Source: Leptospiria bacterium
GTDB lineage: Bacteria; Spirochaetota; Leptospiria; Turneriellales; CBDBES01
Direction of reading: 5' to 3'
Assembly: GCA_965261485.1 (NCBI GenBank)
Contig: CBDHCY010000005.1
Location: 1,484,901 to 1,548,900, forward strand
DNA: 64,000 nt
Shown: in pieces, positions 8,470-64,000 of the stretch
How the letters are laid out: each line of letters begins with the position of its first letter
How positions within the stretch are numbered: the stretch's first letter is position 1
Translations under genes and position numbers: made by a program
The notes under the pieces: model-generated
Told to the model about the DNA's origin: nothing
The model's input: the letters and a program-made list of their open reading frames with translations, nothing else
The model's database searches: none

Positions 8470-10471
8470 TTATAGTGGCGGCATTGGCTGAAACTCGTAA
8501 GCACCCATGTCAATGAGAGGGCCTGCACTAGCAGACTTGCCCTTTACAATACGAGGCTTGCCGGCTAGGTCTAGGGCACCTGCTGGGAATAAAGGCGTCC
8601 CACTAGACCCATTACTACCCGCATCAATCGCAGGTGAACCCATCATTAAACTTAAATCATCATCGAGCGTGCCAAAAACATTATCAACACCATCAGCGTC
8701 TGCAAACAGAGGGTCAGCGTCAATGTTATTACCAGTATTACCAGAAGCACAACTATTAGCATGCGTTGATGCCCACCAATTGGTATCCGTGCTACAACCT
8801 TGAATCAGGCTGTGTGAAATAGTAACTGTTCCAGTAGAACTGCTGTTGCAAAAATTCATATTACCTTTTGTTGTCCCTACAGGACAATCTGAGGACATAT
8901 TATCTGAAAAAATAACATTACTCAGTTTTAAACCAGCACCACCATTAAACAGACCGCCACCAGCAGAATCAGACTTATTGCCTAAAAAAGTAACGTTACT
9001 CAAAGTTACATCCTCACCACCATTACGCATACCCCCACCAACAATCTTAGACTTATTGCCTGAGAAAATAACATTACTCAAAATTAAATCCTCACCACCA
9101 TTATTAGAGAACCCGCCGCCGCCCAAAAGGCCAGAACCATGATTACTGGCTGTATTGCCTGAAAAAATAACATTACTCAAAGTCATATTCATACCACCAC
9201 TATTATACATACCGCCGCCAGAATCGGCTAGATTGCCTGAGAAGATAATATTACTCAAAGTTACATTAGCACTACTACCACCATCATTATACAGACCGCC
9301 GCCAGCTGCAGCACTACTACTAGAACCATTTGATAGACCAGCTGTAATCGTAAAGCCCTCTAAAGTTGTATTAGACGCCCCTGTAACAACCGTATAAACA
9401 TTGTTACCCTTAATATCGCTAGTAACTGTGGTGCTACCAGTCATAACTCGATTGGTCGTTTCTGTAACGCCATCAGCATTAACCGTGTCATTATTATCAA
9501 TGTCACCGCTGAGAATAGTTTTATTCACCAGCCAGTTACGCTCACTTAATAAAGTATCTGCGACATCAAAACCACCATAGACCTTGACATTTGATTTCAA
9601 TTGAAAAGTAGCATTTCTCCCAGGAGTTGAAGACGTAGGCGTAGGCTTATAAATACCTTTAGCCACCACAATCTTATTAGTACCTGCAGAAGATGTTAAC
9701 GCTAAGTTTAGAGAGCTATAAGCATTCGACCAACTCGTGCCATCACCTGTACCACTCGCAGCAGCATTCACAAAAATAGTCTTATCAGAACTTTCTCTCG
9801 TTGCTTCGATCTCAACACCCGCGGCATAATTATGGCTTGCATCATAAGCGAAGATTTTATAATAGTAGGCGGTGCCTGCCGTTGTGGCACTAACGCCGAA
9901 ATCAGAAGAATTAGCACTCTGCACCACCTCTGAGCTACCAATATCACCACCAACCGTATATTCTACACCAGCACTAGGCACGTCTGCTATTGAGACTGTG
10001 TTTCTTAAGATTAAAACCCCAGAGAAATCAGCATCTGTCGGGTTTGCCCAAACAATCACGTTTAAGTCTCCAAAAGTAGCACCACTCACCCCAGCTGGTG
10101 CCTCTGTATCTGTTGGATCAGGAATCAACCCGCCGGGATTTTTCCCACTGGGATCTGTTGGGTCAGGGTTCTTTCCGCCGGGCTCTATTGGCACAGCCGG
10201 ATCTTTAGCATCGTCAGAGCAAGAGACGTTAAAGGCAAAAAAAATAAGGATTAATAATAAACCTTGAGTAACCTTGAGTAACCTTGAGTAACCTTGAGTA
10301 ACCTTGAGTAACCTTGAGTAACCTTGAGTAACCTTGAGTAACCTTGAGTAACCTTGAGTAACCTTGAGTAACCTTGAGTAACCTTGAGTAACCTTGAGTA
10401 ACCTTGAGTAACCTTTGAGTAACCTTTGAGTAACCTTTGTGAGTTGATTTAAGTGCTTTTAATAGTTTCAT
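8470..10471 (-). CDS. P3: phase-variable beta-helix surface lipoprotein paralog, currently OFF
   Basis: Body ORF 8470-10194 (574 aa) plus leader ORF 10229-10471 (MKLLKALKSTHKGYSKVTQRLLKV...). The leader frame ends in ...FIINPYFFCL*, which is the lipobox region read in the wrong frame. Confidence 0.8.
10262..10436 (-). repeat. decamer tract, 15 perfect copies plus two 11-bp variants (CCTTTGAGTAA)
   Basis: Counted directly: perfect units run from 10262 to 10411, with variant units at 10412-10433. Confidence 0.95.
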
Positions 10472-15824: not shown

Positions 15825-15873
15825 ATAAAATACTTGCTTTGGGGTAATTGTTGTCGCTACCTCTACCCAACAA

Positions 15874-16325: not shown

Positions 16326-19300
16326 CTATCGTTGTTGCCCAGCGATCAGATCGCCGTATGACCCACACAAATCAGTGATGGATAGGGTGCTCGTATCAAC
16401 GGTTGAGACGCAAAGCTTAACCGCAGGCAACTGCTCGTCGGTTCCTAGCTCCCAAGCTTTTGTGTCATCCTCCATCATATCGTTAGGAGTCATATCATGA
16501 GGCAAACCATCAGGATGCATGCCACTTATGGCTTTTAGTTGCATTAACGTAAGGCCCGTCGCACCTGATACGTCCGTCACCATCACAACACCTCCCATTT
16601 CTGAAACCGCAGCATTACCCTGTGCCCGCTTGGGGCTTTGGGGAGTCACAGTCATTCCATTAGTTATTTCTTGAGATACCTCTGTATTCCAATAACTATC
16701 TGTAACTGTTAAAGAAGTCAAAGGATTATCAAAATAACCCACTAAACCGCCAGAATAAAGATTGGAGGATCCAGATCCAGACTCGGATTCAGACTCAGAT
16801 TCAGACTCAGATTCAGACTCAGATTCAGATTCAGAGGACCCAAAGGAATTAGAGGAAGAAATTTCAGCAGAACATGCCATCATGGAGGGGGGGCTGCTCA
16901 TAGAAGGGGGGCTGCTCACAGGAGGACAATCAAGCCCACCAAAATAACTATTCTCAATTGTCAAAAATTTAGAATAACCCACTAATCCACCAGAAGCAGC
17001 TTTAGAAGAAGAAGAAGAAGAGATTTTACCAAGACCAGTAAAATAACTATTCTCAATTGTCAAATTAGCACGCATGCCCGTTTCACCTACAATACCACCA
17101 GAATAAGAAGAAGAGGAAGAAGAGGAAAGAGGCTGAAAAGAAGAAGAAGATAAAATATTAATATCTCCACTAAAATAACTATTTTGAATTATTAAATCAG
17201 TTTCAGCATACCCAACGAGACCTCCAGAAGCAGAAAATCTATTAGTATTAAAAGATAATTTAGAAGAAGAGATTTCACTTTCATCACTACCAGAGAAAGA
17301 ACTATAACTATTGATAATTGTTATGGCAATATCAGCATCAGTCATTCTAGAGATTAATGTCTTACCCACCAGACCGCCAGCAGTAGAAGAAAAAGAAGAA
17401 GCAAGAGAAGTGATTTTATTGTTACCACTACCAGAGAAAGAACTATAACTATTGATAATTGTTATAGCAAAATTAGAGGTATTAGAATTATCCAATCCAG
17501 CTTGACCGATTAGCCCGCCAGATGAAGAACGAGAAGCAGAAGAAGAAATTTTTTTCTCACCATTACCAGAAAAAAAACTACGACTATTGTCAATTGTGAG
17601 ATTAATATTGACAGGGTTATCAGAACTGCAATCAGAGTTATCAGAATTGCAATCAGACATAAGTATTTGACCCATCAACCCACCAGATGAAGAACGAGAA
17701 ACAGAAGTGCTAGAAGAAGCAGAAGTGATTTTATGAGCATAATTACCAGAAAAAGAACTAAAACTATTCTTAATCATTATATCAGCATTCGTATTTGATA
17801 CCTCAGTGTGCCCTATTAAACCACCAGAAAAAGAAAGCTCTAAAGAGAAAGAAGAGATTTTATCATCATCATCACCAATACGAATACCAGAGAAAGAACT
17901 AGAACTGTTCTTAATCATTATATTGTTAGCCTTTCCCATAATCTTCAAAGATTTCACATTGCCCACCAAGCCACCGGAAAAAGAAGAGGAAGAAGAAGAA
18001 GAAATGATTTCATTACCAGAGAAAGAACTACCCGTTATCGTCAATGAACCAATTATACGACCTGCTAAACCACCTGAGTAAGCGAAAGATCGATCACGAC
18101 CAGCCATTACAACAGGAGCATAAGATAAGGCTCCGCCACCAGAAAAACTACTATTTGTGATCATCAAATTAACGAAAGCCCCCCCCACTAAACCGCCCGA
18201 ATAAGAATAAGAACAATTACCGTTAAAAGTAGAGATCAAACAAGCATCAACAGAAGACGAATAAGAAGAAACTTCATTAAATCCACTAAAAGTACAATTT
18301 TCGATCGCCAAAGAAGATTTAGCATAACCGACCAAACCACCTGAATAAGCAACACCAGAACTGAAAGCACGGGAATATATCGAACCCAAACTGACCTCCA
18401 CGTTGCGTATTTCAGATTCTCCACCATCGGTAGCACCAAACAGACCAGCGTAAACTTCATCTGACTGAGAACGAATATTCACCCATAGGTTGGTTATGGT
18501 ATGTCTATTACCTTCAAAAATACCCGTGAAGGGATTATTACCATCACCAATAGGTATCCAACTAATGTCTTTGTTTGTATCAATGACACTTACTTGATCA
18601 TTTGAGTCAGAAGTATTACTATTACCATTTTTATCAATGTCAACCATCGTTGTATCAATACCCCTACTTTTATTTGCATCAAGCAAACTCAAAAGATCAA
18701 TGTTCGTTGTCAACTCATAGCCTTTACAGACACCCGATGGGCAACCACCTGAAATACCAGGATCACTACTCGAAGTTTTATAGCTAGCACCCGATAAATC
18801 GTAGCGAATGTTGTGGAGCATTATATCATTATCAATTTCGATGAGACCATCGTGATCCATGTCAACCTCATCATTATTGATCAAAGAAAATGCAACCTCT
18901 TCAAGATTTGAAAAACTAACTTGGTTAAAATTTGAATCAGTCGTGGTTACACGATGTTTAAGAGTATAAAAAAAATCATAGCTCTTTTCAGAATCTTCGA
19001 GATAGCAAATTTCAATCTCTTTAGATATATTAAAATTTGTGGAATCAAAAGTAATACTTGTTGGGTCTATGCTTGGCATCACTCTAAAAGGTAGAATTGT
19101 CTCTGAATAAATCTCGATGGTGAGGTTAGTAATAGGTCTTTTATCCACCAAAGTTGATCTTGTTCTTGAATCAATCTCTATTGTGAAATCAGTATTCGTT
19201 TCTTCTAACAAACGTATTGAATAATGTCCGCAAGTTCCTCCTTCATTAAGGTTAATATTCCGTGCAGTTATTGTTACTCCTTTAAGTTTAAGTGAAGTAT

Positions 19301-19778
19301 TATTGATAAAATGAGCGATAAGGTTCGGAAAACGAGCAAAAGTCATTTGATTAAAGCTTGGCTGATTGCTTGCTATACGATGCTTTATGATATAATAAAA
19401 ATCATCATTTCTCACAGTATCTTCAGGGTAACCGATTACAACTGTTTGAGCTTTATTAAAATTGGTGACATTAAAAGTAATGCTTGTTGGGTTTATTCTT
19501 GGTATTACTCCAAAAGGTGGGGATGTATCTGAATAAATTTCAACAGTGAGGTCAGTACTAGGTTTTTTTGACAAACGTATTGAATAACCAACCTCAGTTC
19601 CCTTTTTGACGGTAATCTCTTGCATATTTAGTATCAGCCTGAGAGTAGTGCCCTTTTTAGCAATTTCGGGAGGTGGTACTACATTTGAACACCGAAGAAA
19701 AAAAAGACAAGTAAGGATAATAATAATAAATATCTGCTTTAGGTGAATAAGAATGAGATTTTTAATCGTCTGTTTCAT
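16326..19778 (-). CDS. large Ser-rich secreted/surface protein with GLUG-motif beta-helix repeats
   Basis: N-terminal hydrophobic signal; three ~100-aa related Ig/Calx-like modules (TVEIYSDTSPPFGVIPRINPTSITF, TIEIYSETILPFRVMPSIDPTSITF); a GLUG-type entry segment (WIPIGDGNNPFTGIFEGNRHTITNLWV...YAGLFG); many SGGL[VIM]G repeats separated by Ser-rich SSFSG modules; and an (SE)n run. Confidence 0.7.
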   Translation of the reverse strand: MKQTIKNLILIHLKQIFIIIILTCLFFLRCSNVVPPPEIAKKGTTLRLILNMQEITVKKGTEVGYSIRLSKKPSTDLTVEIYSDTSPPFGVIPRINPTSITFNVTNFNKAQTVVIGYPEDTVRNDDFYYIIKHRIASNQPSFNQMTFARFPNLIAHFINNTSLKLKGVTITARNINLNEGGTCGHYSIRLLEETNTDFTIEIDSRTRSTLVDKRPITNLTIEIYSETILPFRVMPSIDPTSITFDSTNFNISKEIEICYLEDSEKSYDFFYTLKHRVTTTDSNFNQVSFSNLEEVAFSLINNDEVDMDHDGLIEIDNDIMLHNIRYDLSGASYKTSSSDPGISGGCPSGVCKGYELTTNIDLLSLLDANKSRGIDTTMVDIDKNGNSNTSDSNDQVSVIDTNKDISWIPIGDGNNPFTGIFEGNRHTITNLWVNIRSQSDEVYAGLFGATDGGESEIRNVEVSLGSIYSRAFSSGVAYSGGLVGYAKSSLAIENCTFSGFNEVSSYSSSVDACLISTFNGNCSYSYSGGLVGGAFVNLMITNSSFSGGGALSYAPVVMAGRDRSFAYSGGLAGRIIGSLTITGSSFSGNEIISSSSSSSFSGGLVGNVKSLKIMGKANNIMIKNSSSSFSGIRIGDDDDKISSFSLELSFSGGLIGHTEVSNTNADIMIKNSFSSFSGNYAHKITSASSSTSVSRSSSGGLMGQILMSDCNSDNSDCSSDNPVNINLTIDNSRSFFSGNGEKKISSSASRSSSGGLIGQAGLDNSNTSNFAITIINSYSSFSGSGNNKITSLASSFSSTAGGLVGKTLISRMTDADIAITIINSYSSFSGSDESEISSSKLSFNTNRFSASGGLVGYAETDLIIQNSYFSGDINILSSSSFQPLSSSSSSSYSGGIVGETGMRANLTIENSYFTGLGKISSSSSSKAASGGLVGYSKFLTIENSYFGGLDCPPVSSPPSMSSPPSMMACSAEISSSNSFGSSESESESESESESESESESGSGSSNLYSGGLVGYFDNPLTSLTVTDSYWNTEVSQEITNGMTVTPQSPKRAQGNAAVSEMGGVVMVTDVSGATGLTLMQLKAISGMHPDGLPHDMTPNDMMEDDTKAWELGTDEQLPAVKLCVSTVDTSTLSITDLCGSYGDLIAGQQR
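16766..16838 (-). repeat. in-frame hexa/dodecanucleotide repeat encoding (SE)n-GSGS
   Basis: Iterations of TCAGACTCAGAT encode SESESESESESESESESGSGSS. Confidence 0.85.
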
Positions 19779-47139: not shown

Positions 47140-49860
47140 TTATTCAAGTGCTCTCTGAATAATATCTTGTTGTTCTCTACTATGAATTTTAGCGAGACCA
47201 GCCGCAGGACTGGCTGAAGTTGGGCGGGAGATGCATTTAATATTAATATTTTTCTGTAAAAGCTCTTTTAGTTGAGTTTCTAAGAATAGCCAAGCCCCCA
47301 TATTAGCTGGCTCTTCTTGGAGCCAATAACACTCCTTGAGGTTTGAATATAATTTCAGGAGTTCTTTAATTTTATTCTCCGGAAAAGGATACAATTGTTC
47401 AACACGTACTAAAATAATATTAGTAATTTTTTTATCTTTGAGCATTTTATAAATTTCATAATAAATTTTTCCGCTCATGAGAATTAATCTCGTTACTTGT
47501 TTAGGAGTTTTACTTGAATCAATAATTATTTTTTCAAAACGACCATGAGTAATTTCTTTCATGCTCGATGAGGCCTCTGGGAGCCTTAATAAACTTTTTG
47601 GGCTCATTATGATCAAAGGTTTTTTAGATTTTCTTAAAATTTGTCTTCGTAGTAGGTGAAATATTTGAGCTGGAGTTGTAGGGTAACACACTTGCAAATT
47701 TTGTTCAGCACACATATGTAAAAAACGTTCTAAACGAGCACTTGAATGTTCGGGACCTTGCCCCTCATAACCATGGGGAAGTAACATGGTAAGACCACTC
47801 ATACGTAGCCATTTAACCTCAGAGCTACTCAAAAATTGATCAATAATAACTTGGGCACCATTTGCAAAGTCACCAAATTGTGCTTCCCATACGACTAGAG
47901 CATCAGGATCTGCAAGAGAATAGCCATATTCAAAACCCAAAACAGAGAACTCAGAGAGTGGAGAATTAACAATCTCTAATTTACTTTGATTCTCTGAAAT
48001 ATGATTAAGAGGAAACCATTTTTCTTCTGTTTCTCTGTCAACAAAACCAGCATGTCGGTGAGAAAAAGTACCACGAATACTATCTTGACCAACAAAACGT
48101 ATTTTATGTTGACTGTCTAAAATAGAACCCATCGCAAGAGCTTCGGCAAAACCCCAGTCAATTTCTATTTCTCCTTCATACATTTTTTTTCGATTTTCAA
48201 TCAATTTAATTAACTTCGGATGAATATTAAAAGAATCAGGTATCGAAAAAAGTGCATTCGCTACTTTCTTGAGTTGTTTTTTTAAAAGATTAGTATCAGG
48301 CTCTCCGGTCTCTTCTCTCGAATAAGAGGACCAACGATCTTTAAGGGTTTCAGCGACCATGTGTGTACGACCTTCTTTAACCTGTTTAAATGAATCGTCT
48401 AAGGTTTTTGTGGCATTAATTTTTATTTTTTCGATCTCTTCTTTTTTAATCTCAAGGTTTTGAATAATTTTTTCTTCATAGAGATCAACCACTGGTTTAT
48501 GTTTTCTAATTTTTTTATACATAGAAGGTTGTGTGAAGGCGGGTTCATCTGTTTCGTTATGACCTAGCTTGCGATAACAAACTAGGTCAAGTATTACATC
48601 TTTTTTAAATTTCTTTCGATAACTCATAGCAAGTTGTACAACACGAAAAACAGATTCTGGATCATCACCATTTACGTGAAAAATAGGAATTTGAAAACCT
48701 TTTGCTAAATCAGTCGCATAAAGAGTCGAGCGTGATTCCATGGGTAGGGTGGTAAAACCAATTTGATTATTAAATACAACGTGTAAAACACCTCCTGTGC
48801 TAAAGCTTTCTAAGTTCACAAGATTAAGACTCTCAGCAACAATACCTTGCCCAGCAAAAGCGGCATCACCATGAATTAAAAGAGCCATAAACTTATCTCG
48901 TTGATGATCTTTAGCCATTGTTTGACGGGCACGAACAGAACCCATCACAACCGGATTTACAGCCTCAAGATGACTCGGATTAAAAGCCAAAGAAAGTTTA
49001 ATTTTTTTTCCTGAACGTGTTATAACATGATTTGAATAGCCTAGATGATATTTAACATCCGCATAATCGAGAGTTTGAGGATCATAGTTTTCTTCAAACT
49101 CAGCAAAAATTTGACTAGCTGGTTTTTGTAAAGAGTTCACTAAAACATTTAATCGCCCTCGATGAGCCATACCCATTACAATACATTCTAAACCATCATC
49201 TGCCCCCTTCTCAATTATAGAGCTTAGTAAAGGAATAAATGATTCACCACCTTCAAGGGAAAAACGTTTTTTACCAATATATTTTTTAGCGAGAAAGTGC
49301 TCAAAAAAATCAGCATGCACGAGATTATCATAAAGTTCTAATTTAATATTTTTTGATAAATCTTGATTATGTTCAAAAGACTCAATTTGTGTTTGGAGCC
49401 ATAATCGTTCTTTTTCATTTACGATATAGTGATGCTCATAACCAATATTTCCACAGTAAATTTTTTCAAACCATGGTATAATATCTTTTAATTGTTTAGC
49501 TTTGAATCTAGAATCAAGAATAGAGAATTCAAGTAATAATTCTTTCTCTCCAATTAAGGCAAGTTTTTCTTCAATGATCTCTCTGGTAGGTTCATGAATA
49601 TTTAGCGGGTCTAGAGAAGCAGCGAGATGCCCATGGGCTCGATATGTGTTCAGAAGATTTTCGATGCCCATTGTCTTAAGTGTCATCGTATTTTGTAGCC
49701 TATCAATACGAGGCGGAAGGTTTGAATTATTATCAATAGTGGTAAAAAAATCAAGCCAAGCTTGATCTAATGCACTAGGGTTTGTTTCATATGTTTTATG
49801 AAGGTCTTCTAATATAGCAAGATTAGCACCACTTAAAGCAGAGTAAGTCAGTTGGTTCAT
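47140..49860 (-). CDS. sucA: 2-oxoglutarate dehydrogenase E1 component
   Basis: 906 aa with RGHL..A.LDPL, GHNETDEPAFTQP and LPHGYEGQGPEHSSARLERFL. Confidence 0.95.
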   Translation of the reverse strand: MNQLTYSALSGANLAILEDLHKTYETNPSALDQAWLDFFTTIDNNSNLPPRIDRLQNTMTLKTMGIENLLNTYRAHGHLAASLDPLNIHEPTREIIEEKLALIGEKELLLEFSILDSRFKAKQLKDIIPWFEKIYCGNIGYEHHYIVNEKERLWLQTQIESFEHNQDLSKNIKLELYDNLVHADFFEHFLAKKYIGKKRFSLEGGESFIPLLSSIIEKGADDGLECIVMGMAHRGRLNVLVNSLQKPASQIFAEFEENYDPQTLDYADVKYHLGYSNHVITRSGKKIKLSLAFNPSHLEAVNPVVMGSVRARQTMAKDHQRDKFMALLIHGDAAFAGQGIVAESLNLVNLESFSTGGVLHVVFNNQIGFTTLPMESRSTLYATDLAKGFQIPIFHVNGDDPESVFRVVQLAMSYRKKFKKDVILDLVCYRKLGHNETDEPAFTQPSMYKKIRKHKPVVDLYEEKIIQNLEIKKEEIEKIKINATKTLDDSFKQVKEGRTHMVAETLKDRWSSYSREETGEPDTNLLKKQLKKVANALFSIPDSFNIHPKLIKLIENRKKMYEGEIEIDWGFAEALAMGSILDSQHKIRFVGQDSIRGTFSHRHAGFVDRETEEKWFPLNHISENQSKLEIVNSPLSEFSVLGFEYGYSLADPDALVVWEAQFGDFANGAQVIIDQFLSSSEVKWLRMSGLTMLLPHGYEGQGPEHSSARLERFLHMCAEQNLQVCYPTTPAQIFHLLRRQILRKSKKPLIIMSPKSLLRLPEASSSMKEITHGRFEKIIIDSSKTPKQVTRLILMSGKIYYEIYKMLKDKKITNIILVRVEQLYPFPENKIKELLKLYSNLKECYWLQEEPANMGAWLFLETQLKELLQKNINIKCISRPTSASPAAGLAKIHSREQQDIIQRALE

Positions 49861-50192: not shown

Positions 50193-52122
50193 TTATTGAC
50201 TTTCGTAAGCACCCATATCTATGCTACTGCCTACAATACGAGCCTTGCCTGCTAGGTCGGTGGCACCTGCTGGGAATAAAGGCATCCCAGGAGGCCCATT
50301 ACTACCCGCATCAATCGCAGGTGAAGTCGCCATTAAACGTAAATCGTCATCAAACAGAGGGTCAGCGTCAATATTATTACCACCATCGCCATTATTGCCA
50401 GTGCTATCATCACCGTCATTATCGTCGCCACAACTACTAGTGCCCATTGCCCAAGTGGAACCACTAGCACCACAACCTTGAATCAAGCTGTGTGAAATAT
50501 TAATTATCCTATTATTAGTAGACGATCTGTTACTGCAAATATTCTGATTACCTCGGAAACTCCCTCCAGTACAAGTGCCCGCTGTATTGCCCCACATAAT
50601 GACATTAGTCAAGGTGACGGTATTTTCATTTTGAAAAAAAGCAGCTCCCCCAGCATCAGTAGCCGTATTATTTGAAAAGACAACATTATTTAAAGTGAAA
50701 TTAACAGCCGCCCTATCACTCTGCAGACCGCCACCATTAACATCAGACGTATTATCTGAAAAGACAACATTCTCTAAAATTCCATCATACCCCTCATTAT
50801 ACAGACCGCCGCCGCCCAGCCTAAAGCCGTTTGGGTCAACGCTTGCATTGCCTGAAAAAAAAACATTACTTAAATTAATAGTACTACCAACACTAGAAGA
50901 TAGTAATAGACCACCGCCACCATTAGCCGTATTACCGAAGAAAATAATATTACTCAAAGTTACATTATCATTATTTACATTACGCATACCGCCACCAAAA
51001 GCATTCCTTGGCACATTAATATCAGAACCATTTGATTGACCAGCTGTAATCGTAAAGCCCTCTAAAGTTGTATTAGACGCCCCTATAACAACCGTATAAC
51101 TATTACTACCCACAATGTGACTAGCATTTTCTATAATGCCATCATCATTAGAATCAGTATCGTCACCACCAATGTCACCGCTGAGAATAGTTTTATTCAC
51201 CCGCCAGTTACGCTGACTCAATGAATGCTCTGTACCCACGAAACCACCATAGACCTTGACCTTTGATACCAATTGAAAAGTAGCATTTCTATCAGAAGTT
51301 GTAGACGTAGGCTTATAAACACCTTTAGCCACCACAATCTTATTAGTGGCTACAGAAGATGTTAACGCTGAGTTTAGAGAGCTATAAGCATTCGACCAAC
51401 TCGTGCCATCACCCGTACCACTAGCAGCAGCATTCACAAAAATAATTTTACCTGATCGTCTTGTTGCTTCAATCTCAACACCCGCAGCGTAATTATGGCT
51501 TGCATCATAAGCAAAAATTTTATAATAGTAAGAAGTGCCTACCGTTGCGGTACTAACGCCGAAATCAGAAGAATTTGCACTCTGCACCACCTCTGAGCTA
51601 TCAATATCATCACCAACCGTATATTCTGTACCAGCACTAGGGGCGTCTACTATTGAGACTGTGTTTCTTAAGATTAAAACACCAGAGAAATCAGCATCCG
51701 CTGGGTTCATCCAAGTGATTACATTTAATAAGTCTCCAAAAGCAACGCCACTCACCACAGCTGGTGGCTCTGTATCTGTTGGATCAGGAATCGTTGGCAT
51801 ATTCGGATTTGTTCCGCCGGGATTCTTTCCACCGGGATTTGTTGGGTCAGGATTTTTCCCACTGGGCTCTATTGGCACAGCCGGACCTTTAGCATCGTCA
51901 GAGCAAGAGACGTTAAAGGCAAAAAAAATAAGGATTAATAATAAACCTTGAGTAACCTTGAGTAACCTTGAGTAACCTTGAGTAACCTTGAGTAACCTTG
52001 AGTAACCTTGAGTAACCTTGAGTAACCTTGAGTAACCTTGAGTAACCTTGAGTAACCTTGAGTAACCTTGAGTAACCTTGAGTAACCTTTTGAGTTGATT
52101 TAAGTGCTTTTAATAGTTTCAT
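50193..52122 (-). CDS. P4: phase-variable beta-helix surface lipoprotein paralog, currently OFF
   Basis: Body ORF 50193-51878 (561 aa, ends IDMGAYESQ*) plus leader ORF 51913-52122 (MKLLKALKSTQKVTQGYSRLLKV...FIINPYFFCL*). Confidence 0.8.
51946..52089 (-). repeat. decamer tract, 14 perfect copies of CCTTGAGTAA
   Basis: Counted directly: units run from 51946 to 52085, followed by CCTTTTGAG. Confidence 0.95.
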
Positions 52123-52422: not shown

Positions 52423-54315
52423 TTATTGACTTTCGTAAGCACCCATATCTATGCTATTGCCTACAATACGAGCCTTGCCTGCTAGGTCTAGGGCACCAGT
52501 TGCGAATAAAGGCATTCCAGTAGGCCCATTACTACCCGCATCAATCGCGGGTGAACCCGCCTTTAAACGTAAACCATCATCGGCCGTACCAAAAATATTA
52601 TCAGCACCATTGGGGTCATCAGCGTCTGCAAACAGAGGGTTATTACTATCAATATTATTACCAGTATTACCAGAAGCACAACTATTAGCATGCGTTGATG
52701 CCCACCAATTGGTATCCGTGCTACAACCTTGAATCAGGCTGTGTGAAATAGTAACTGCAACAAGCATACCGCCGCTACAAAAATTAGCATTACCTTTGGC
52801 ACTGTTTCCAGTACAAGCCATCGCCGTATTGCCCCACATAATGACATTAGTCAAAGTAAGATCAGCAGAAGCATTTGACAGACCGCCACCAGTAGTACCA
52901 GACTCATTGCCTGAGAAAATAACATTACTCAAAGTTAAACGAGGACTAGCATTACGCATACCGCCACCAAAAACAGCAGACTTATTGTCTGAGAAAATAA
53001 TATTACTCAAAGTTAAACTGAAATCAGAACTAGACAAACCGCCGCCACCAAAAGAGCTAACACGCTGATTACTGGCTGTATTGCCCGAGAAAATAATATT
53101 ACTCAAAATTAAATTCCTACCAACATTGTACATACCGCCGCCAGAATCGGCTGTATTGCCTGAGAAAATAATATTACTCAAAATTAAATTATCACTAGAA
53201 CTATGCATACCGCCCCCCAGAATAACGACACCAATACCCCTACTGGCATTTGATTGACCAGCTGTAATCGTAAAGCCCTCTAAAGTTGTATCACCCGCCC
53301 CTGTAACAACCGTATAACTATTACTACCATTAATATCGCTAGTAGCTGTGGTGCTACCAGAACTAACTCGATTGGTCGTTTCTGTAACGCCATCAGCATT
53401 AACCGTGTCATTATTATCAATGTCACCGCTGAGAATAGTTTTATTCATCCGCCAGTTACGCTCACTTAATAAAGTATCTGCGACATCAAAACCACCATAG
53501 ACCTTGACCCCTGATATCAATTGAAAAGTAGCACTTCTATCAGAAACTGAAGGTGGAGACACTAAAGGCATCGCAAGTGTAGTAGGCTTATAAACACCTT
53601 TAGCCACCACAATTTTATCACCAGTGGTGGCGACGACTCCTTCAGCAGGAGGTTTTAACACCGACCGTAGATCGCTATAAGCATTCGACCAACTCGTGCC
53701 ATCACCCGTACCACTAGCAGCAGCATTCACAAAAATAGTCTTATCAGAACTTTTTGTTGCTTCGATCTCAACACCCGCGGCGTAATTATGGCTTGCATCA
53801 TATGCGAAGATTTTATAATAGTAAGAAGTGCCCATCGTTGCGGCACTAACGCCGAAATCAGAAGAATTTGCACTCTGCACCACCTCTGAGCTACCAATAT
53901 CACCACCAACCGTATATTCTTTACCAACACTAGGAGCGTCGTCTGTTATTGAGACTGTATTTCTTAAGATTAAAACCCCAGAGAAATCAGCATCTGTCGG
54001 GTTTGCCCAAACAATCACGTTTAAGTCTCCAAAAGTAGCACCACTCACCACAGCTGGTGGCTCTGTATCTGTTGGATCAGGAATCGTTGGCATATTCGGA
54101 TTTGTTCCGCCGGGATTCTTTCCACCGGGATCTGTTGGGTCAGGGTTCTTTCCGCCGGGCTGTGTTGGCACAGCCGGATCTTTAGCATCGTCAGAGCAAG
54201 AGACGTTAAAGGCAAAAAAAATAAGGATTAATAATAAACCTTGAGTAACCTTGAGTAACCTTGAGTAACCTTGAGTAACCTTTTGAGTTGATTTAAGTGC
54301 TTTTAATAGTTTCAT
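52423..54315 (-). CDS. P5: beta-helix surface lipoprotein paralog, intact and in frame (ON)
   Basis: Single 630-aa ORF: MKLLKALKSTQKVTQGYSRLLKVTQG-LLLILIFFAFNVSC|SDDAKDPAVPTQPGGKNPDP..., followed by the Fn3-like block, FSGN/GGG repeats and a C-terminal ...IDMGAYESQ*. The decamer tract has 4 units. Confidence 0.88.
   Translation of the reverse strand: MKLLKALKSTQKVTQGYSRLLKVTQGLLLILIFFAFNVSCSDDAKDPAVPTQPGGKNPDPTDPGGKNPGGTNPNMPTIPDPTDTEPPAVVSGATFGDLNVIVWANPTDADFSGVLILRNTVSITDDAPSVGKEYTVGGDIGSSEVVQSANSSDFGVSAATMGTSYYYKIFAYDASHNYAAGVEIEATKSSDKTIFVNAAASGTGDGTSWSNAYSDLRSVLKPPAEGVVATTGDKIVVAKGVYKPTTLAMPLVSPPSVSDRSATFQLISGVKVYGGFDVADTLLSERNWRMNKTILSGDIDNNDTVNADGVTETTNRVSSGSTTATSDINGSNSYTVVTGAGDTTLEGFTITAGQSNASRGIGVVILGGGMHSSSDNLILSNIIFSGNTADSGGGMYNVGRNLILSNIIFSGNTASNQRVSSFGGGGLSSSDFSLTLSNIIFSDNKSAVFGGGMRNASPRLTLSNVIFSGNESGTTGGGLSNASADLTLTNVIMWGNTAMACTGNSAKGNANFCSGGMLVAVTISHSLIQGCSTDTNWWASTHANSCASGNTGNNIDSNNPLFADADDPNGADNIFGTADDGLRLKAGSPAIDAGSNGPTGMPLFATGALDLAGKARIVGNSIDMGAYESQ
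54239..54282 (-). repeat. decamer tract, 4 perfect copies of CCTTGAGTAA
   Basis: Counted directly: units run from 54239 to 54278, followed by CCTTTTGAG. Confidence 0.95.
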
Positions 54316-54319
54316 GTCT

Positions 54320-54348
54320 TCTTATCGTACACTAAAACAGTCTGTCAA
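54320..54348 (-). promoter_or_regulatory. candidate promoter of P5 (TTGACA-17-ATAAGA)
   Basis: Same sequence as the P4 promoter. The -10 is at 54325-54320 and the -35 at 54348-54343. Confidence 0.35.
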
Positions 54349-54404
54349 TAAAAAAATGTTTTTTTGATAATTTCTGAATACTTTGAAATTTAAAGACATC
54401 TAAT

Positions 54405-54547: not shown

Positions 54548-56656
54548 TTATTGACTTTCGTAAGCACCCATATCTATGCTACTGCCTACAATACGAGGGT
54601 TGCCGGCTAGGTCTAGGGCACCAGTTACGAATAAAACTTTCGTATTATCACTAGGATCAACATTACTACCCGCATCAATCGCGGGTGAACCCGCCCTTAA
54701 ACGTAAATCGTCATCAAACAGAGGGTCAGCGTCAATGTTATTACCACCATCAGTGCCGCATCTACTGAGATTAGTTGCTGAGCTCCAAATGGAAGAACCA
54801 CTAACACCACAATCTTGAATCAAGCTATGTGAAATAGTAGGCTGTACATTGAAGGTGCAAAAATTAACATTACCCTTAAAATTGTCTCCAGTACAAGCAG
54901 CCCCTGTATTGCCCCACATAATGACATTGGTCAAGATAGCAACAGCACTTCCAGTATTTTTGCGAATTTGACTTCCTCCACCTACATTAGTAGCTGTATT
55001 GTTTGAAAAAACAACATTAGTCAAGGTTAAATTAGCATCAACACTTTGTATACCGCCACCAAAACTGGCCATATTGCCTGAAAAAGCAACATTGGTTAAA
55101 ATAGCACCACCACCACGAATAGTAAGACCACCTCCACCCAAAATAGTAGCTGTATTGTTTGAAAAAACAATATTAGTTAAGGTTAAATTATCACTACCCT
55201 TAGCATAAAAACCGCCACCAACATTGGCTGCATTGCCTGAAAAAGTAATATTAGTTAAAGTTAAATTATGATTATCTATATTATACACGCCACCACCCCT
55301 ATTAATATAATTACCGGTACCTGCAGGAGCATTTGATTGACCAGCTGTAATCGTAAAACCGTCTAGAATGGCATCGCTCGCCCCTGTAACAACTGTATAA
55401 CTATTATTAGCGATTACAGTCATCATACCACCAGCATCCACCATTTCGGTACCCTTAATGTCATCAGCATTTTCTATAATGCCATCACGATTAGAATCAG
55501 TATCGTCACCACCAATGTCACCGCTGAGAATAGTTTTATTCACCCGCCAGTTACGCTCACTTAACGAGGCATCTGCGACATCAAAACCACCATAGACCTT
55601 GACATTTGATATCAATTGAAAGGTAGCATTTCTCCCAAGAGTTGAAAGTGTAGACCTAGGCTTATAAATACCTTTAGCCACCACAATCTGAACTGGTAGA
55701 GTCTCAGTCGCATCATCAGCTATTTTAGATTCTAACGCTGAGTTTAGGGAGCTGTAAGCATTCGACCAACTCGTGCCATCACCCGTGCCACTCGCAGCAA
55801 CATTCACAAAAATAATTTTATCAGAGATTTTCGTTGCAGAGATCTCAAAACCTGTGGCATAGTTACGGTTTGTATCATAAGTGAAGATTTTATAATAATA
55901 CTTTTTATAACGGTAAGGAATATTTTCTCCATCCTGTTCCCTTATATCTGTGAGGTCAAAGTCAAGAGATTTTGCATCGTGCACCACCTCTGAGGCACCA
56001 ATTGAAACACCAACCGTATATTCTTTACCAGCACTAGGGGCGTCTACTATTGAGCTTGTATTTCTTAAAATTAAAACTTTAGAGAAATCAGCATCTGTTG
56101 GGTTTAACCAAGTGATTTTGTTCGTGAAATCACTAAAAGTAACATCGCTCACCTCAGCTGGTGGCACTGTATCTGTCGGATTGGTTTTTGTCGAACCAGG
56201 TGTTTTGTAGTCAGCCAGTGCTGGTATATATTTATTAACCTTAGTCTGAACACCGTTGTTGTAGTAGAGATAAGTGTCACAGACAAAGATTTTATAAAAA
56301 TAAACGACATCCTCTACAACTTCTGTGTCTCTAAAAGTTGGTGCGGCTGCGTTATAGGCTACCCGTGAGGCTCCCATTGCGGTGAAGACAGGATAATCTC
56401 GCCAAGGTCTAGGAAAACCTTGGATAGCACTTGTATTCTTTAAGATTAGAACCTTATTGTAGATGTTACGGCCTCTACTCGCAGGATTCTTCCATGCTAG
56501 GGTTATCCCGCTTGAATTACGATTAACGGTAAGATCTGTGACTTCTGGTAGAGGGTCATCCAACCCATTCAAAAAATATGCACGACCAATTTTAGTGCAA
56601 TGCAGGAAAATCAGTAGGAAAAAAAAACTTATAAAAAATAGAAATCTTGAGTTCAT
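54548..56656 (-). CDS. P6: beta-helix surface protein paralog, long form with a duplicated Fn3-like domain and no decamer switch
   Basis: 702-aa intact ORF. It has a different signal peptide (MNSRFLFFISFFFLLIFLHC), two Fn3-like modules (…VYFYKIFVCDTYLYY and …YYYKIFTYDTNRNY), TLTN[IV]xFSxNxA..GGG repeats, and ends IDMGAYESQ*. Confidence 0.85.
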   Translation of the reverse strand: MNSRFLFFISFFFLLIFLHCTKIGRAYFLNGLDDPLPEVTDLTVNRNSSGITLAWKNPASRGRNIYNKVLILKNTSAIQGFPRPWRDYPVFTAMGASRVAYNAAAPTFRDTEVVEDVVYFYKIFVCDTYLYYNNGVQTKVNKYIPALADYKTPGSTKTNPTDTVPPAEVSDVTFSDFTNKITWLNPTDADFSKVLILRNTSSIVDAPSAGKEYTVGVSIGASEVVHDAKSLDFDLTDIREQDGENIPYRYKKYYYKIFTYDTNRNYATGFEISATKISDKIIFVNVAASGTGDGTSWSNAYSSLNSALESKIADDATETLPVQIVVAKGIYKPRSTLSTLGRNATFQLISNVKVYGGFDVADASLSERNWRVNKTILSGDIGGDDTDSNRDGIIENADDIKGTEMVDAGGMMTVIANNSYTVVTGASDAILDGFTITAGQSNAPAGTGNYINRGGGVYNIDNHNLTLTNITFSGNAANVGGGFYAKGSDNLTLTNIVFSNNTATILGGGGLTIRGGGAILTNVAFSGNMASFGGGIQSVDANLTLTNVVFSNNTATNVGGGSQIRKNTGSAVAILTNVIMWGNTGAACTGDNFKGNVNFCTFNVQPTISHSLIQDCGVSGSSIWSSATNLSRCGTDGGNNIDADPLFDDDLRLRAGSPAIDAGSNVDPSDNTKVLFVTGALDLAGNPRIVGSSIDMGAYESQ

Positions 56657-58991: not shown

Positions 58992-61721
58992 TTAGGGATT
59001 ACTTTTCTTCAAAAGAAACTCTACTCTCCTGTTTCTACTGCGTTTATACCAATTTTTATTTGGTACAAGCGGAGAAACTTCACCAATCCCTTGATAGTCT
59101 AGACGCTCAGGCTCTGTGCCCAATTGAATTAAATAATCAACCACTGCCTTTGCTCTCTTCTCAGAAAGCAAAAGGTTAAAACTTTCTCCTCCGAGATCAT
59201 CAGTATGACCTTCCACTTTTATATTATAATGACTATATCGTTCTAACAGACGATGAATCTTTTTAATCAAAGCTCTAGTTTTATATTTTAACTTGGCTTT
59301 TCCTAAGTCAAACTCTATATTTGATATCCTTATTTTTAACCCTCTTTCGCTAACTAGAACCAAAATATCAGTATCAAATTGACCTTCCTTTGACTTCGCC
59401 TGATTACCATAACTATCGGTGGCTGTCAGATAGTATCTATACTCAGTAGCAGACTCTACGAGGCTCCCCTTATCAGATTTACCACTCCAATAAATTTCTT
59501 TAGGGTACTTAGCACCCCCTTTAAATTTTTTAAACAGAACTGTATGAGTTTTACCTTTATCATTTGAACTCACTTCTTTAATATAAAGTTGATAGCTCGT
59601 TATAGGGGAATAATCTTGAATAGATAAGCTAAAAACTTCTTCTTCGTCTTTACCATCACCATCAGGAGAGAAAATAGAAAGACTTGCCTTGACATTAACT
59701 TTTGGTTTTTGAGTATCAAGAATAATTTTTTTGAAGAGTGAATGTGGATGATTACCTGACGCATATTTTACAGAAAATTGAGCATAATAAATACCATCTT
59801 TTAAAGATTTACCATCTTTTTTTGTTCCATTCCATTTAATGGATGGAGGAATTTTACCCCCCCCCCATTTGACGAGAGCGTTTTTTGCATTTTTTATAGG
59901 CTCATCATAAACATCCTTACCTATGGTAAGCTTCCAGCTTATAATATTTTTTTGATTTGAGACCACGGGAGTCATCATCAATGTATCAAATTTTTTGTCA
60001 TGATTAGGGCTTAACCCTGTATTAGAAAGTTTCACATCAACAACATCAATACTTCTGATTAAAGAGATTGCCTGTGTTTCAGTTTGAGATTGGTTTCCCG
60101 ATAAATCATTAGCCGTAATTTTGTATGTATATAAACCTTCACTTACAGGCTTCCCTTTATCATCTTTTCCATCCCAAATTATTTTTTGAGGTATCGCTTT
60201 ACCATTCCATTTATAAGTTTTTACCACCTCGCCAGTAGAGTTAACAAAACTAGCTCTCCATCTATCATTTTTTGTAGCATTAAACTCTTGTAAAATGGTA
60301 ATTGTTTCTAAAATACCGTCACCATTTGGGCTAAAGAAAGAAGAAAGAGCACTAATTTTAATATCAGGTGATGTTGTATCAATTTCAAAAACTCCTGTGG
60401 AGGGTCTACTTACATTACCCCATTCGTCTGTAGCAACAAACTTATAAGAGTAAATACCATCTGACAAATTTTTATGAGCAATAGAATCAGCTTTCTCTAA
60501 TGCAATGGGGTCGACTGTTCCATCCCACCGAATTTGAGAAGGAACCGATAAATATTCTTGTTTTTTGAAGAAATAAATAAAAAAATCTTTGAAACCAAAC
60601 TCTTTTTCAAAGTCTCGTGTATCACTAGCGAATTTACGCACCACCCGACGCCTGCTGTTTAGTATAGAAAAATTCCAATCTTTTACTAAACTTGCATCTT
60701 CAACAAATATTTTAAAATTAATATAATCTTTTTCTCCATCCCAATTTGGAGAGAAATAATTTAAATCTTGCTTAATATGAACACGAGGTGGGGTCTTGTC
60801 AGCGTAGTCAATATCAAACCTTAGAAAAACAGTATGTAAATCACTATCAATATTTATACCAGTTTGAGCGAAAGCATAATTTAGAGAGACAGAAAGCTGC
60901 TTAACATTTAAGTTGACTCCTACTCCAAGTGTGAGACCATTAAGCAAGTCAGCCTCCTCACTCAGAGCGTAACCTATCCCAAAATTTAAAAATTTATACT
61001 GAAGAGTTAGCCCAAAACGAGCAGGTAAAGACGCATAAGTGCCAATGCCAATAATCTCTCCATTTACACCTACTCTAAAACCATAGTTTTTGTAAAAGAA
61101 AAATTGAGTTCCCAAATGAAGTGAGACGCGTGGACCTACTCCATTGGGATTAAAAATATTCACACCTAAATTATGAGATAGAAAATAAAAACTTAAATCA
61201 TAGAGCCCTAAACCAATTTTTGTACTAAACTCGCTCTTTGTATTATATAAAAATGCAGGCTCAATGGCTAACGAAAAAAAAGATACTGTATTTTCAACAG
61301 TAGCTAAGGCAGGTTTTAAATAGATCCCGAATGAAAATCGACTAGTAAATTGTCTGGCATAACCTACCGATAAAAAATAATATTCTTGAAATTGATTTGA
61401 CGGAATCTCTTTTGTTTTATCACCTAAAAAGCCACCATTGATACTCACGGTACCTACCGGACTAGGGATAAATGCTTGAGCCCAAAAAGCATCAACGAGC
61501 GCAACTTTTGCATACCCAAACCCACCACCTTGAATAGCAAGGCCTCCCATTAATGCAGCGTTTGAAATGCTTGATTCATTTGGAAGTAGCATATTTGTAG
61601 AACTTCCCCCCGAACCTAAGTTCGCCGGAATATGCGTTGACTCTAACAAACCACGGATCGAGCCAAAAGAAATTTCACTAAAAAGTAATAGTAATAAAAA
61701 AAATCGAAACTTGATCATCAT
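58992..61721 (-). CDS. OmpA-family outer membrane protein with an N-terminal beta-barrel-like region and multiple FlgD-Ig-like repeats
   Basis: Signal peptide; Gly/aromatic-rich barrel-like N-terminal 300 aa; four FSPN[GW]DG(x)D/E modules; C-terminal OmpA domain (VEGHTDDLGGESFNLLLSEKRAKAVVDYL...NRRVEF). Confidence 0.8.
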   Translation of the reverse strand: MMIKFRFFLLLLLFSEISFGSIRGLLESTHIPANLGSGGSSTNMLLPNESSISNAALMGGLAIQGGGFGYAKVALVDAFWAQAFIPSPVGTVSINGGFLGDKTKEIPSNQFQEYYFLSVGYARQFTSRFSFGIYLKPALATVENTVSFFSLAIEPAFLYNTKSEFSTKIGLGLYDLSFYFLSHNLGVNIFNPNGVGPRVSLHLGTQFFFYKNYGFRVGVNGEIIGIGTYASLPARFGLTLQYKFLNFGIGYALSEEADLLNGLTLGVGVNLNVKQLSVSLNYAFAQTGINIDSDLHTVFLRFDIDYADKTPPRVHIKQDLNYFSPNWDGEKDYINFKIFVEDASLVKDWNFSILNSRRRVVRKFASDTRDFEKEFGFKDFFIYFFKKQEYLSVPSQIRWDGTVDPIALEKADSIAHKNLSDGIYSYKFVATDEWGNVSRPSTGVFEIDTTSPDIKISALSSFFSPNGDGILETITILQEFNATKNDRWRASFVNSTGEVVKTYKWNGKAIPQKIIWDGKDDKGKPVSEGLYTYKITANDLSGNQSQTETQAISLIRSIDVVDVKLSNTGLSPNHDKKFDTLMMTPVVSNQKNIISWKLTIGKDVYDEPIKNAKNALVKWGGGKIPPSIKWNGTKKDGKSLKDGIYYAQFSVKYASGNHPHSLFKKIILDTQKPKVNVKASLSIFSPDGDGKDEEEVFSLSIQDYSPITSYQLYIKEVSSNDKGKTHTVLFKKFKGGAKYPKEIYWSGKSDKGSLVESATEYRYYLTATDSYGNQAKSKEGQFDTDILVLVSERGLKIRISNIEFDLGKAKLKYKTRALIKKIHRLLERYSHYNIKVEGHTDDLGGESFNLLLSEKRAKAVVDYLIQLGTEPERLDYQGIGEVSPLVPNKNWYKRSRNRRVEFLLKKSNP

Positions 61722-62084: not shown

Positions 62085-64000
62085 TTATTGGCCTTCATAA
62101 GCACCCATATCTATGCGATCGTTTACAATACGAGGGTTGCCGGCTAGGTCGGTGGTTATCTCAGCGGGTAGCCCACCATTGTCGGCCGTACTACCCACAT
62201 CAATCGCAGGTGAACCCGTATTTAAACGTAAATTGTCATCAAGCGTACCAACAACATTATCAGCACCATCGGCGTCTACAAACATTGGATAATTAGCATA
62301 ACCAGCAGCTGTCGGGTCACCATCAATATTATTACCACCATCGCCATTATTGCCAGTGCTATCATCACCATCATTATCGTCGCCACAACTGCTAACACCC
62401 GTTGCCCAAGTGGAACCACTAACACCACAACCTTGAATCAAGCTGTGTGAAATATTAATTGTCCTGGTATCACCAGACAATTTGCTACTGCAAATATTCT
62501 GATTACCTCGGGAATTCGCTCCAGTACAAGTGCCCGCTGTATTGCCCCACATAATGACATTGATCAAGATAATACTTCCAGCTCCATAAATACTACTTCC
62601 TCCACCTCCATCAGCAGTAGCTGTATTGTTTGAAAAAACAACATTAGTCAAGGTTAAATTAGCATGAGTACTCCGTGTACCGCCACCAAAAGGGGCCATA
62701 TTGCCTGAAAAAGCAACATTGGTTAAAATAGCACTACTACGAAAATTAGTAAGACCACCACCACCTAGATTGGAAGCAGTGTTCCCAAAAAAAAGAATAT
62801 TAGTTAATATTAAATTATTACTATTTCTACTATACACACCGCCGCCACCACCGGCTGCATTGCCTGAAAAAGTAATATTAGTTAAGGTTAAATTATGATT
62901 ATCTATATTATACACGCCACCACCCCTATTAGTATGGTTAAAGGTACCAGTAGGACCATTTGATTGACCAGCTGTAATCGTAAAACCATCTAAAATGGCA
63001 TCACTCGCCCCTGTAACAACTGTATAACTATTATTAGCGATTACAGTCATCATACCACCAGCATCCGCCATTTCGGTACCCTTAATGTCATCAGCATTTT
63101 CTGTAACGCCGGCAGCATTAACAGTGTCGTCACCACCAAGATCACCGCTTAAAATGGGTTTGTTCACCCGCCAGTTACGCTCACTTAATGAGGTCTCTGT
63201 ACCACTAAAACCACCATAGACCCTGACATGTGATATCAATTGAAAAGTAGCATCTCGATCAGAAACTAAAGACGTAGGCTTGTAAACACCTGCAGCCACC
63301 ACAATTTGAACTGGTAGAGCCGAGGTCGCGGCAGTGGCTGTAGAAGATGTTAACGCTGAGCTTAAATCGCTAAAAGCATTCGACCAACTCGTGCCATCAC
63401 TCGAACCACTCGCACCACCCGCAGCATTAACAAAAATAGTCTTATTAGTATTTTTCGTTGCAGAGATTTCAACACCCGCGGCATAATTACGGCTTGCATC
63501 ATAAGCGAAGATTTTATAAAAATAAAGAGTGCCCGCCGTTGCCGCTCTAACGCTGAAATCAGGAGAATTGGCATTGTACACCACCCGTGAAGTACCAATT
63601 GAAGCATCAACTATATATTCTTCACCAGCACTAGGGCCATCTATTATTGAGATTGTATCTCTTAAGATTAAAACCTTAGAGAAATCAGCATCCGCTGGGT
63701 TTATCCAAGTAATTACATTTAATAAGTCTCTAAAAGTAACATCGCTCACCTCAGCTGGTGATTGTGTATCAGCTGGTGGTGGTATATATTTATTAACCTT
63801 AGTCTGAACGCCGAAATTGTAATAAAGATAAGTGTCAGAGACAAAGACTTTATAAAAATAAACGACATCCTCTACAACTTCTGTGTCTCTAAAAGTTGGT
63901 GCGGCTGCGTTATAGACTACCCGTGAGACTCCCATTGTGGTGGAGACAGGATAATCTCGCCAATGTTTAGGAAAATCTTGGATAGCACTTGTATTCTTTA
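62085..64000 (-). CDS. P7: beta-helix surface protein paralog (long form like P6); the N-terminus lies beyond the window end
   Basis: ORF track 62085-63935. The frame stays open to 64000: hand translation gives ...KNTSAIQDFPKHWRDYPVSTTMGVS, parallel to P6 KNTSAIQGFPRPWRDYPVFTAMGAS. Ends IDMGAYEGQ*. Confidence 0.85.
   Translation of the reverse strand, partial: KNTSAIQDFPKHWRDYPVSTTMGVSRVVYNAAAPTFRDTEVVEDVVYFYKVFVSDTYLYYNFGVQTKVNKYIPPPADTQSPAEVSDVTFRDLLNVITWINPADADFSKVLILRDTISIIDGPSAGEEYIVDASIGTSRVVYNANSPDFSVRAATAGTLYFYKIFAYDASRNYAAGVEISATKNTNKTIFVNAAGGASGSSDGTSWSNAFSDLSSALTSSTATAATSALPVQIVVAAGVYKPTSLVSDRDATFQLISHVRVYGGFSGTETSLSERNWRVNKPILSGDLGGDDTVNAAGVTENADDIKGTEMADAGGMMTVIANNSYTVVTGASDAILDGFTITAGQSNGPTGTFNHTNRGGGVYNIDNHNLTLTNITFSGNAAGGGGGVYSRNSNNLILTNILFFGNTASNLGGGGLTNFRSSAILTNVAFSGNMAPFGGGTRSTHANLTLTNVVFSNNTATADGGGGSSIYGAGSIILINVIMWGNTAGTCTGANSRGNQNICSSKLSGDTRTINISHSLIQGCGVSGSTWATGVSSCGDDNDGDDSTGNNGDGGNNIDGDPTAAGYANYPMFVDADGADNVVGTLDDNLRLNTGSPAIDVGSTADNGGLPAEITTDLAGNPRIVNDRIDMGAYEGQ

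Follow-up and report, generated by a model that had tools for sequence, protein, structure and literature searches.

The 64,000-nucleotide (nt) window of contig CBDHCY010000005.1, by which we mean the whole stretch of DNA analysed here (34% G+C), contains five paralogous genes, P1 to P5, each with a tract of ten-nucleotide repeats inside the coding region of its signal peptide. We consider P1 to P5, with a probability of about 0.78, to be contingency genes of an uncultured Leptospirales bacterium, forming a family of paralogs whose products are probable surface lipoproteins that contain a Pmp-like parallel beta-helix. Their organization fits a slipped-strand, translational phase-variation family, apparently built like Neisseria opa and without homology to opa.

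Tracts were detected over the window by Tandem Repeats Finder (TRF) and by regular expressions. Five perfect decamer arrays were found, with the unit ACTCAAGGTT on the coding minus strand and AACCTTGAGT on the plus strand. The number of units was 17 in P1, 11 in P2, 15 in P3 (with two imperfect 11-mers before them), 14 in P4 and 4 in P5, and all arrays, (ACTCAAGGTT)4-17, showed 100% matches. Perfect decamer arrays of 40-170 base pairs (bp) are far beyond chance. All five genes lie on the minus strand, and each tract comes after a common ATG leader and before the signal peptide's hydrophobic core and Cys. The leader ATGAAACTATTAAAAGCACTTAAATCAACTCA precedes the tract in 5/5 paralogs, the tract beginning 39-62 nt past the ATG. 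The 39-nt leader is the same in P2, P4 and P5, while P1 and P3 carry ACTCACAAAGGTT, longer by one base. Downstream of the tract all five genes carry TATTATTAATCCTTATTTTTTTTGCCTTTAACGTCTCTTGC, coding for LLLILIFFAFNVSC, and these 41 nt are identical in every copy. The copies in frame and out of frame are called ON and OFF, respectively, and are located as follows, with lengths of proteins in amino acids (aa) and ORF for open reading frame.

52423..54315, minus strand: P5, the ON paralog, 630-aa precursor, a single ATG ORF identical to P0001.
54277..54315, minus strand: P5 leader read from the sequence, 39 nt with the ATG at 54313-54315, ending in an imperfect first unit ACTCAAAAGGTT.
54237..54276, minus strand: P5 decamer tract (ACTCAAGGTT)x4, coding for part of the signal-peptide n-region (..TQGYSRLLKVTQG..), from TRF and regular expressions.
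54196..54236, minus strand: P5 post-tract signal-peptide core LLLILIFFAFNVSC with the Cys codon at 54196-54198, the same 41 nt in five genes.
50193..52122, minus strand: P4, OFF, ATG at 52122, tract 51944-52083 (14 units), body ORF 50193..51878.
8470..10471, minus strand: P3, OFF, ATG at 10471, imperfect 11-mers 10410-10431, tract 10260-10409 (15 units), body ORF 8470..10194.
5523..7446, minus strand: P2, OFF, ATG at 7446, tract 7298-7407 (11 units), body ORF 5523..7232.
2449..4475, minus strand: P1, OFF but in a different frame from P2 to P4, ATG at 4475, tract 4266-4435 (17 units), body ORF 2449..4200.

The distance from the ATG to the sequence after the tract, taken modulo 3, was 1 in P5, 2 in P2, P3 and P4, and 0 in P1, and the value 1 alone connects the ATG to the signal-peptide frame. 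Tract counts, these frames and the ORF listing together confirmed an earlier reading of the same DNA, the first-pass annotation, according to which one of the five switch-bearing paralogs (P5, 4 units) is in frame and reads through as a single 630-aa product. The interval given there, 54239-54315, properly covers the P5 leader and tract. In the ORF listing each of P1 to P4 appears as two pieces, a leader ORF (49-80 aa) and a body ORF (561-583 aa). Translation from the ATG of these four copies meets a stop 5 to 14 codons past the tract, and their signal-peptide frame is shut by a stop not more than 7 codons from the ATG position. No ATG, GTG or TTG was found in the signal-peptide frame before the Cys codon of P1 to P4. 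Since this frame is closed upstream and has no alternative start, a signal-peptide-bearing product is not possible from the OFF copies. They are blocked at the level of translation, with predicted products of 49-80 aa, and each of them stands one unit short of or beyond the ON frame.

The on/off switch design proposed in the first-pass annotation held up well. The repeat is perfect and tandem, lies inside the ORF near its 5' end in the cleaved signal peptide, and has a unit which is not a multiple of three. The OFF alleles retain an intact downstream ORF without an alternative start, each copy has its own upstream module, and the repeat number varies among close strains with the flanks conserved (at the P5 and P3 loci, in low-coverage sister contigs). 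A published screening rule for units of 4-10 nt requires more than two copies (PMC5231331); 10 nt is the upper limit of this rule, and the decamer arrays of 4-17 units pass it. Ten nucleotides do not make up whole codons, and one unit more or less therefore shifts the ATG into or out of the reading frame of the hydrophobic core, the Cys and the entire mature protein. For the type of leader found in P2, P4 and P5 the ON state returns at every third length (n = 1, 4, 7, 10...), and with every three further units the n-region of the signal peptide, whose removal by cleavage is expected, becomes ten residues (YSRLLKVTQG) longer. As the extra residues are confined to this peptide, the mature protein should be independent of tract length. 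The long tracts were 100% pure in the TRF output, which fits continuing turnover. Slipped-strand mispairing at replication would change the unit number of each gene independently, and a population would then hold mixed combinations of expressed variants. The paralogs differ chiefly in the coils of the beta-helix, and slippage together with recombination among the tandem copies would vary the cell surface. Recombination among tandem copies would also give one chimeric gene in the sister strains where the window strain has three.

The sister strains were contigs of the ENA metagenome ERZ26693861, in which core genes and flanks are 98.4-98.9% identical to the window. Three paralogs of the window, a 702-aa gene, P5 and P4, occupy the interval from RNase R to sucA. 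The same interval in contig L001/L098 holds one chimeric gene, P0004, whose 5' part is 95.9% identical to P5 and which has 10 units and is in frame, while in contig L083 it holds one gene, P0006, with a single unit and so without a repeat. At the other locus, occupied by P3, P2 and P1 in the window, a single gene is present in contig L082; it has the P3 upstream flank and 8 units and is out of frame. Across strains the P5 locus thus comes with 4, 10 or 1 units and the P3 locus with 15+2 or 8. Both loci have three paralogs in the window versus one in the sister strains, with flanks about 99% identical, and the single genes of the sister strains are chimeras of window paralogs. Judged from these contigs, tract length is variable between near-identical strains, and whole paralogs come and go. 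Every paralog is followed by a tandem array of another kind.

2210-2484, 4576-5560, 7547-8507, 49984-50198, 52219-52428 and 54400-54550, no strand assigned: tandem arrays with a unit of 82-109 nt, one after every paralog (TRF).

The 82-109-nt unit opens with a copy of the last codons of the gene (GAYE.Q), occurs as many as about 10 times in an array and contains a weak inverted repeat, TCAGCC..GGCTGA. Neither a stable RNA fold (z = -0.26) nor an Rfam match was found for this unit. The intergenic arrays are probably a substrate for unequal crossing-over.

Conservation among the copies extends upstream of the start codon, where the following element was defined.

54316..54400, minus strand: conserved upstream module of P5, with TTGACA at 54343-54348 and TACGAT at 54324-54329, from the alignment of the copies.

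Over the 120 bases 5' of the ATG, P4 and P5 are identical and P1 and P2 nearly so. The core TTGAC...GTGTACGA is invariant in all copies, and TTGAC and GT.TACGA are invariant across 10 aligned sequences, sister strains included. Each switch copy has a conserved module of its own, the last conserved box of which stops 8 nt short of the ATG, and no Shine-Dalgarno sequence was found before the ATG of P1 to P5. The end of the module 8 nt before the ATG, taken with the missing Shine-Dalgarno sequence, suggests that the 5' untranslated region is very short or absent, and the mRNA may be leaderless or nearly so. The conserved module is here regarded as a candidate promoter only. Elsewhere in the window, sucA, the OmpA-like gene and plsC-gpsA are likewise without a Shine-Dalgarno sequence.

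The P5 protein starts with the signal peptide and Cys. A linker rich in Pro, Gly, Asn and Asp comes next, then a repeat-type module of about 100 aa and, after it, a parallel beta-helix, and the C-terminus is formed by a choice-of-anchor Q domain. The signal peptide has an n-region with K and R and the core LLLILIFFAF, and its Cys stands in the motif FNVSC. This motif is kept in the five switch-bearing copies, and the tract-free paralogs have FSVSC or FLHC. The module of about 100 aa recurs in up to 21 copies in giant proteins elsewhere (HMMER). AlphaFold modelled a right-handed parallel beta-helix at approximately residues 190-530, mostly with a predicted local distance difference test (pLDDT) score of 80-94, and the Foldseek matches to the P5 model were all right-handed beta-helix proteins. 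NF041518 (NCBIfam, choice-of-anchor Q) matched residues 582-630 with 38.2 bits against a cut-off of 25, and both tract-free paralogs matched it as well. Pfam gave no match for P5, for which the cut-off of PF02415 (Chlamydia Pmp repeat) was not reached; the 702-aa paralog scored 16.6 bits with this model, below the cut-off of 20.6, and PF02415 is present in many distant homologs. Four FxxN motifs in the beta-helix and five GGG[ML] motifs were counted in P5, and no GGA[ILV] motif. Variation between the paralogs is concentrated in the beta-helix coils; over the first 190 residues conservation is mostly 84-95%, with 70% in the linker segment. We regard the proteins of the family as probable lipoproteins.

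Several observations weigh against reading P1 to P5 as contingency genes of surface lipoproteins. The sister-strain contigs have only 3-4x coverage, and their unit counts could be off. The ratio of nonsynonymous to synonymous divergence (dN/dS) between paralogs is 0.6-0.9, which suits diversifying surface proteins but also relaxed constraint. The 10-unit ON allele implies an n-region of 46 residues, for which export is predicted only. The first-pass annotation had also credited P5 with the same leader, promoter and lipobox as P1 to P4, and this stood in part: the leader, the upstream module and FNVSC are conserved, but the promoter and lipobox labels need to be qualified. The module was not recognised as a promoter in a scan for the sigma-70 consensus and is not a canonical sigma-70 site, and FNVSC is not a canonical lipobox, the N at -3 failing the PROSITE-type pattern [LVI][ASTVI][GAS]C. 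Spirochaetal lipoboxes (SpLip) are reportedly looser.

The dN/dS values would also suit an explanation in which P1 to P4 are decaying pseudogenes, the arrays being non-adaptive expansions that permanently inactivated redundant copies, so that only P5 and the tract-free paralogs matter. The OFF state of four copies out of five and the fact that the sister strains do well with one gene where the window has three point in the same direction. Decay would, however, have to leave four bodies of about 1.75 kb intact, without a stop or frameshift, at a synonymous divergence (dS) of 0.10-0.37, and with all indels between paralogs in frame. It would further have to leave the upstream module, the leader and the signal peptide nearly identical among the copies and the tracts perfectly pure, and one sister strain has a 10-unit tract that is in frame. 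From the intact bodies, the near-identical module, leader and signal peptide, and the pure tracts we therefore argue for a reversible OFF state over decay, which we find improbable. Slightly less improbable, although still unlikely, is that the unit counts reflect assembly errors or the consensus of a mixed population, in which case the ON and OFF calls, that of P5 included, describe no single cell. The first-pass annotation had spoken of a sequenced clone. This wording needs to be qualified, as the sister contigs are metagenome assemblies labelled 3-7x and the source contig of the window is probably one too; if so, the states are those of a population consensus. In addition, one sister contig ends within about 400 bp downstream of a paralog, among intergenic repeats. 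On the other hand, the same architecture with clean flanks is present in four independent contigs, the 40-bp tract of P5 is trivial for assembly, and arrays of up to 170 bp are well within long-read length. Least probable in our judgement is a bypass, by ribosomal frameshifting or transcriptional slippage, that would give full-length protein from the nominally OFF copies, with the tract length tuning the amount. Nothing direct speaks for it, though the periodic peptide read from the repeat is the same in each of the three frames. The unit ACTCAAGGTT lacks homopolymer runs and slippery heptamers of the type X_XXY_YYZ, a stop lies 5 to 14 codons past the tract in both wrong frames, and the signal-peptide frame is closed upstream by stops. 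Contingency genes remain our preferred reading.

The first-pass annotation had gone further and taken one ON and four OFF copies as the pattern to be expected if the family is expressed one or a few members at a time. This does not follow from the counts, for which independent random frames suffice. With random frames at p = 1/3, 1.7 ON copies are expected among five, the probability of exactly one being 0.33 and that of one or none 0.46; with the two tracts of the sister strains added, 2/7 are ON. A rule of one-at-a-time expression was rejected, one of five being the likeliest single outcome under independent random frames. P5 does have the shortest tract in the window, as had been stated, but the ON state is not tied to a short tract, the sister allele with 10 units being in frame. 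Repeat number sets the switching rate in other systems (De Bolle 2000 and Bayliss 2012, cited in PMC11868660). By analogy with such systems, 4 units would be expected to slip less often than 11-17.

Nor would P5 be the sole possible product of the family, since the tract-free paralogs P0016, P0015 and P0011 are always in frame. Two genes of this kind lie in the window.

54548..56656, minus strand: tract-free 702-aa paralog (P0016), with the upstream module and leader in degenerate form and a different signal peptide, ..FLLIFLHC.
62085..64000, minus strand: tract-free paralog running off the window end, corresponding to P0015 (709 aa).

The number of five switch genes was likewise an effect of the window. 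P0001, identical to P5, is encoded on a contig of 2.13 Mb, and P0007, P0010, P0013 and P0014 come from the same contig. These four begin at an internal GTG (MPIEPGG/MPTQPGG), the same as the truncated calls of the OFF genes, and from this common start we conclude that the genome probably holds at least nine switch genes, at least four further OFF-looking paralogs lying beyond the window. The paralogs with a single unit, P0006, P0012 and P0017, have the leader MKLLKTLK(S/F)TQG followed by LLLILIFF, which we take as the ancestral form from which the array grew. Three tandem paralogs of an 'MNLLK' subfamily, with one ACTCAAGGTT unit each, were seen on contig L097 (ERZ26693861 ctg79496). A G8 run is located there between a conserved ..CCGATA box and the ATG, at 1520-1545 and 3620-3645 (..ccgataGGGGGGGGtATG.., twice), and P0017 of L083 has GATAGTGTGGGTATG at the place of this run. 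The poly-G of the 'MNLLK' subfamily may be a second switch in the same family.

Relatives with a SucA 76-79% identical had no family member beside sucA and no decamer tract. Scans of Joint Genome Institute (JGI) metagenomes gave 0 matches to the junction pattern and 10 to the two-unit pattern, all of the latter in unrelated high-GC sequence. A protein search with the leader-plus-tract peptide returned no candidates, and when the first 190 residues served as query in an exhaustive HMMER search, only the repeat module of about 100 aa was matched outside this species, never the leader or tract. In a scan of representative-genome contigs the relatives had at most 42% identity (38% for the best-ranked). 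As for the host, SucA (47140..49860) is 55% identical to Leptospira SucA and 76-79% identical to proteins on metagenome contigs, the OmpA-like protein encoded nearby gives a match to the Leptospira Lsa66 model that is below the cut-off, and a related contig carries the Leptospira-typical domain DUF1577. These similarities point to an uncultured Leptospirales bacterium; should the 2.13-Mb contig be nearly complete, the genome of this bacterium is small. A Cas12a (Cpf1) gene was noticed at L096 20899-22721 in a relative with a 79% identical SucA, from the same metagenome.

Other repeats were recorded in the window besides those of the family. The OmpA/Lsa66-like gene, encoding 909 aa in ORF 58992..61721 (minus strand), has a poly-G tract at 59857-59866 (G10 in the coding direction, read as C10 on the plus strand), encoding ..KWGGGKIP..; at the same place L083 has G13 (910 aa, in frame) and L098 an interrupted GGGGAGGGGG. 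With this length-polymorphic poly-G, the gene is a candidate for a second phase-variable surface gene in the window. The intergenic positions 15866-16313, between a murA-like gene and a gene for a repeat-rich putative lipoprotein of 1150 aa, are filled by 9.6 copies of a G+C-rich tandem repeat of 47 nt, with 94-96% matches and no Rfam match. The 1150-aa putative surface protein (ORF 16326..19778, minus strand) has C8 at 18179-18186 and G7 at 16887-16893 and is in frame now; such G/C homopolymer runs are unusual for the base composition of the window. Rfam and tRNA scans of the window gave no matches.

The mechanism is already known in kind and is not new. In full-text searches of the literature we found no description of a decanucleotide or 10-bp phase-variable repeat system, and no repeat-driven on/off switching for Leptospira or relatives. 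Putting the observations together, one may tentatively picture the first Opa-like phase-variable set in the order Leptospirales, with perhaps at least nine decamer-switched lipoprotein genes genome-wide, poly-G tracts in the OmpA/Lsa66-like gene and a sister subfamily, and intergenic arrays which add and remove paralogs. The unit would be among the longest for frame switching, and the 2.13-Mb contig, implying a small genome if near-complete, would suggest a lifestyle tied to a host or under heavy phage predation. We give this combined picture slightly less than an even chance. If the tracts slip, an uncultured leptospire would vary its surface in the manner of the classic mucosal pathogens, and what annotation presents as four truncated proteins with leader ORFs would really be switchable full-length lipoproteins. 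The locus would in that case offer a convenient marker of heterogeneity, both at the level of strains and within populations, in metagenomes from long reads. Selection might come from host immunity, from phage or predator receptors, or from adhesion. Tools that screen for switches should retain units of 10 nt.

The closest known counterpart is opa of Neisseria gonorrhoeae and N. meningitidis, in which CTCTT repeats in the region coding for the leader peptide undergo slipped-strand mispairing at approximately 1e-3 switches per cell per generation (PMC3960869). Both are multi-copy families of surface proteins, with a promoter for each copy in opa and an upstream module for each copy here. Both have a repeat that is not a multiple of three in the leader-peptide region, which sets the frame and spares the mature protein. 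In both the paralogs recombine into mosaics, and the independent switching of the opa copies would have its parallel here. The unit is, however, 10 nt here and 5 in opa, and it codes here for the charged n-region (QGYSRLLKVT), in opa for the hydrophobic core. The product is a probable beta-helix lipoprotein instead of an 8-stranded beta-barrel, with no Opa homology and no CTCTT, and the host is an uncultured Leptospirales bacterium in which switching is deduced from sequence. The family also resembles the Chlamydia Pmps. Both comprise many paralogous beta-helix proteins of the surface in which FxxN and GGx[ILVM] motifs occur, and Pmps show on/off switching resembling phase variation (PMC8326573). 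Unlike the proteins described here, which end in choice-of-anchor Q and have an apparent N-terminal lipid anchor, Pmps are autotransporters with a C-terminal beta-barrel. Among spirochaetes, the cases known so far are the promoter poly-G tracts of Treponema pallidum tpr and tp0126, likewise simple-repeat switches of candidate outer-surface proteins (PMC7864442). Promoter homopolymers act there on transcription, whereas the decamer within the ORF would act here on translation; the poly-G runs at window positions 59857-59866 and in L097 are nearer to the Treponema type. In Helicobacter pylori oipA, sabA and babB, CT repeats near the 5' end, in the region of the signal sequence, set the frame of outer-membrane adhesins. 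These switches differ from the decamer tracts in that their units are dinucleotides and they are found in single genes, and not in a tandem family with one common leader.

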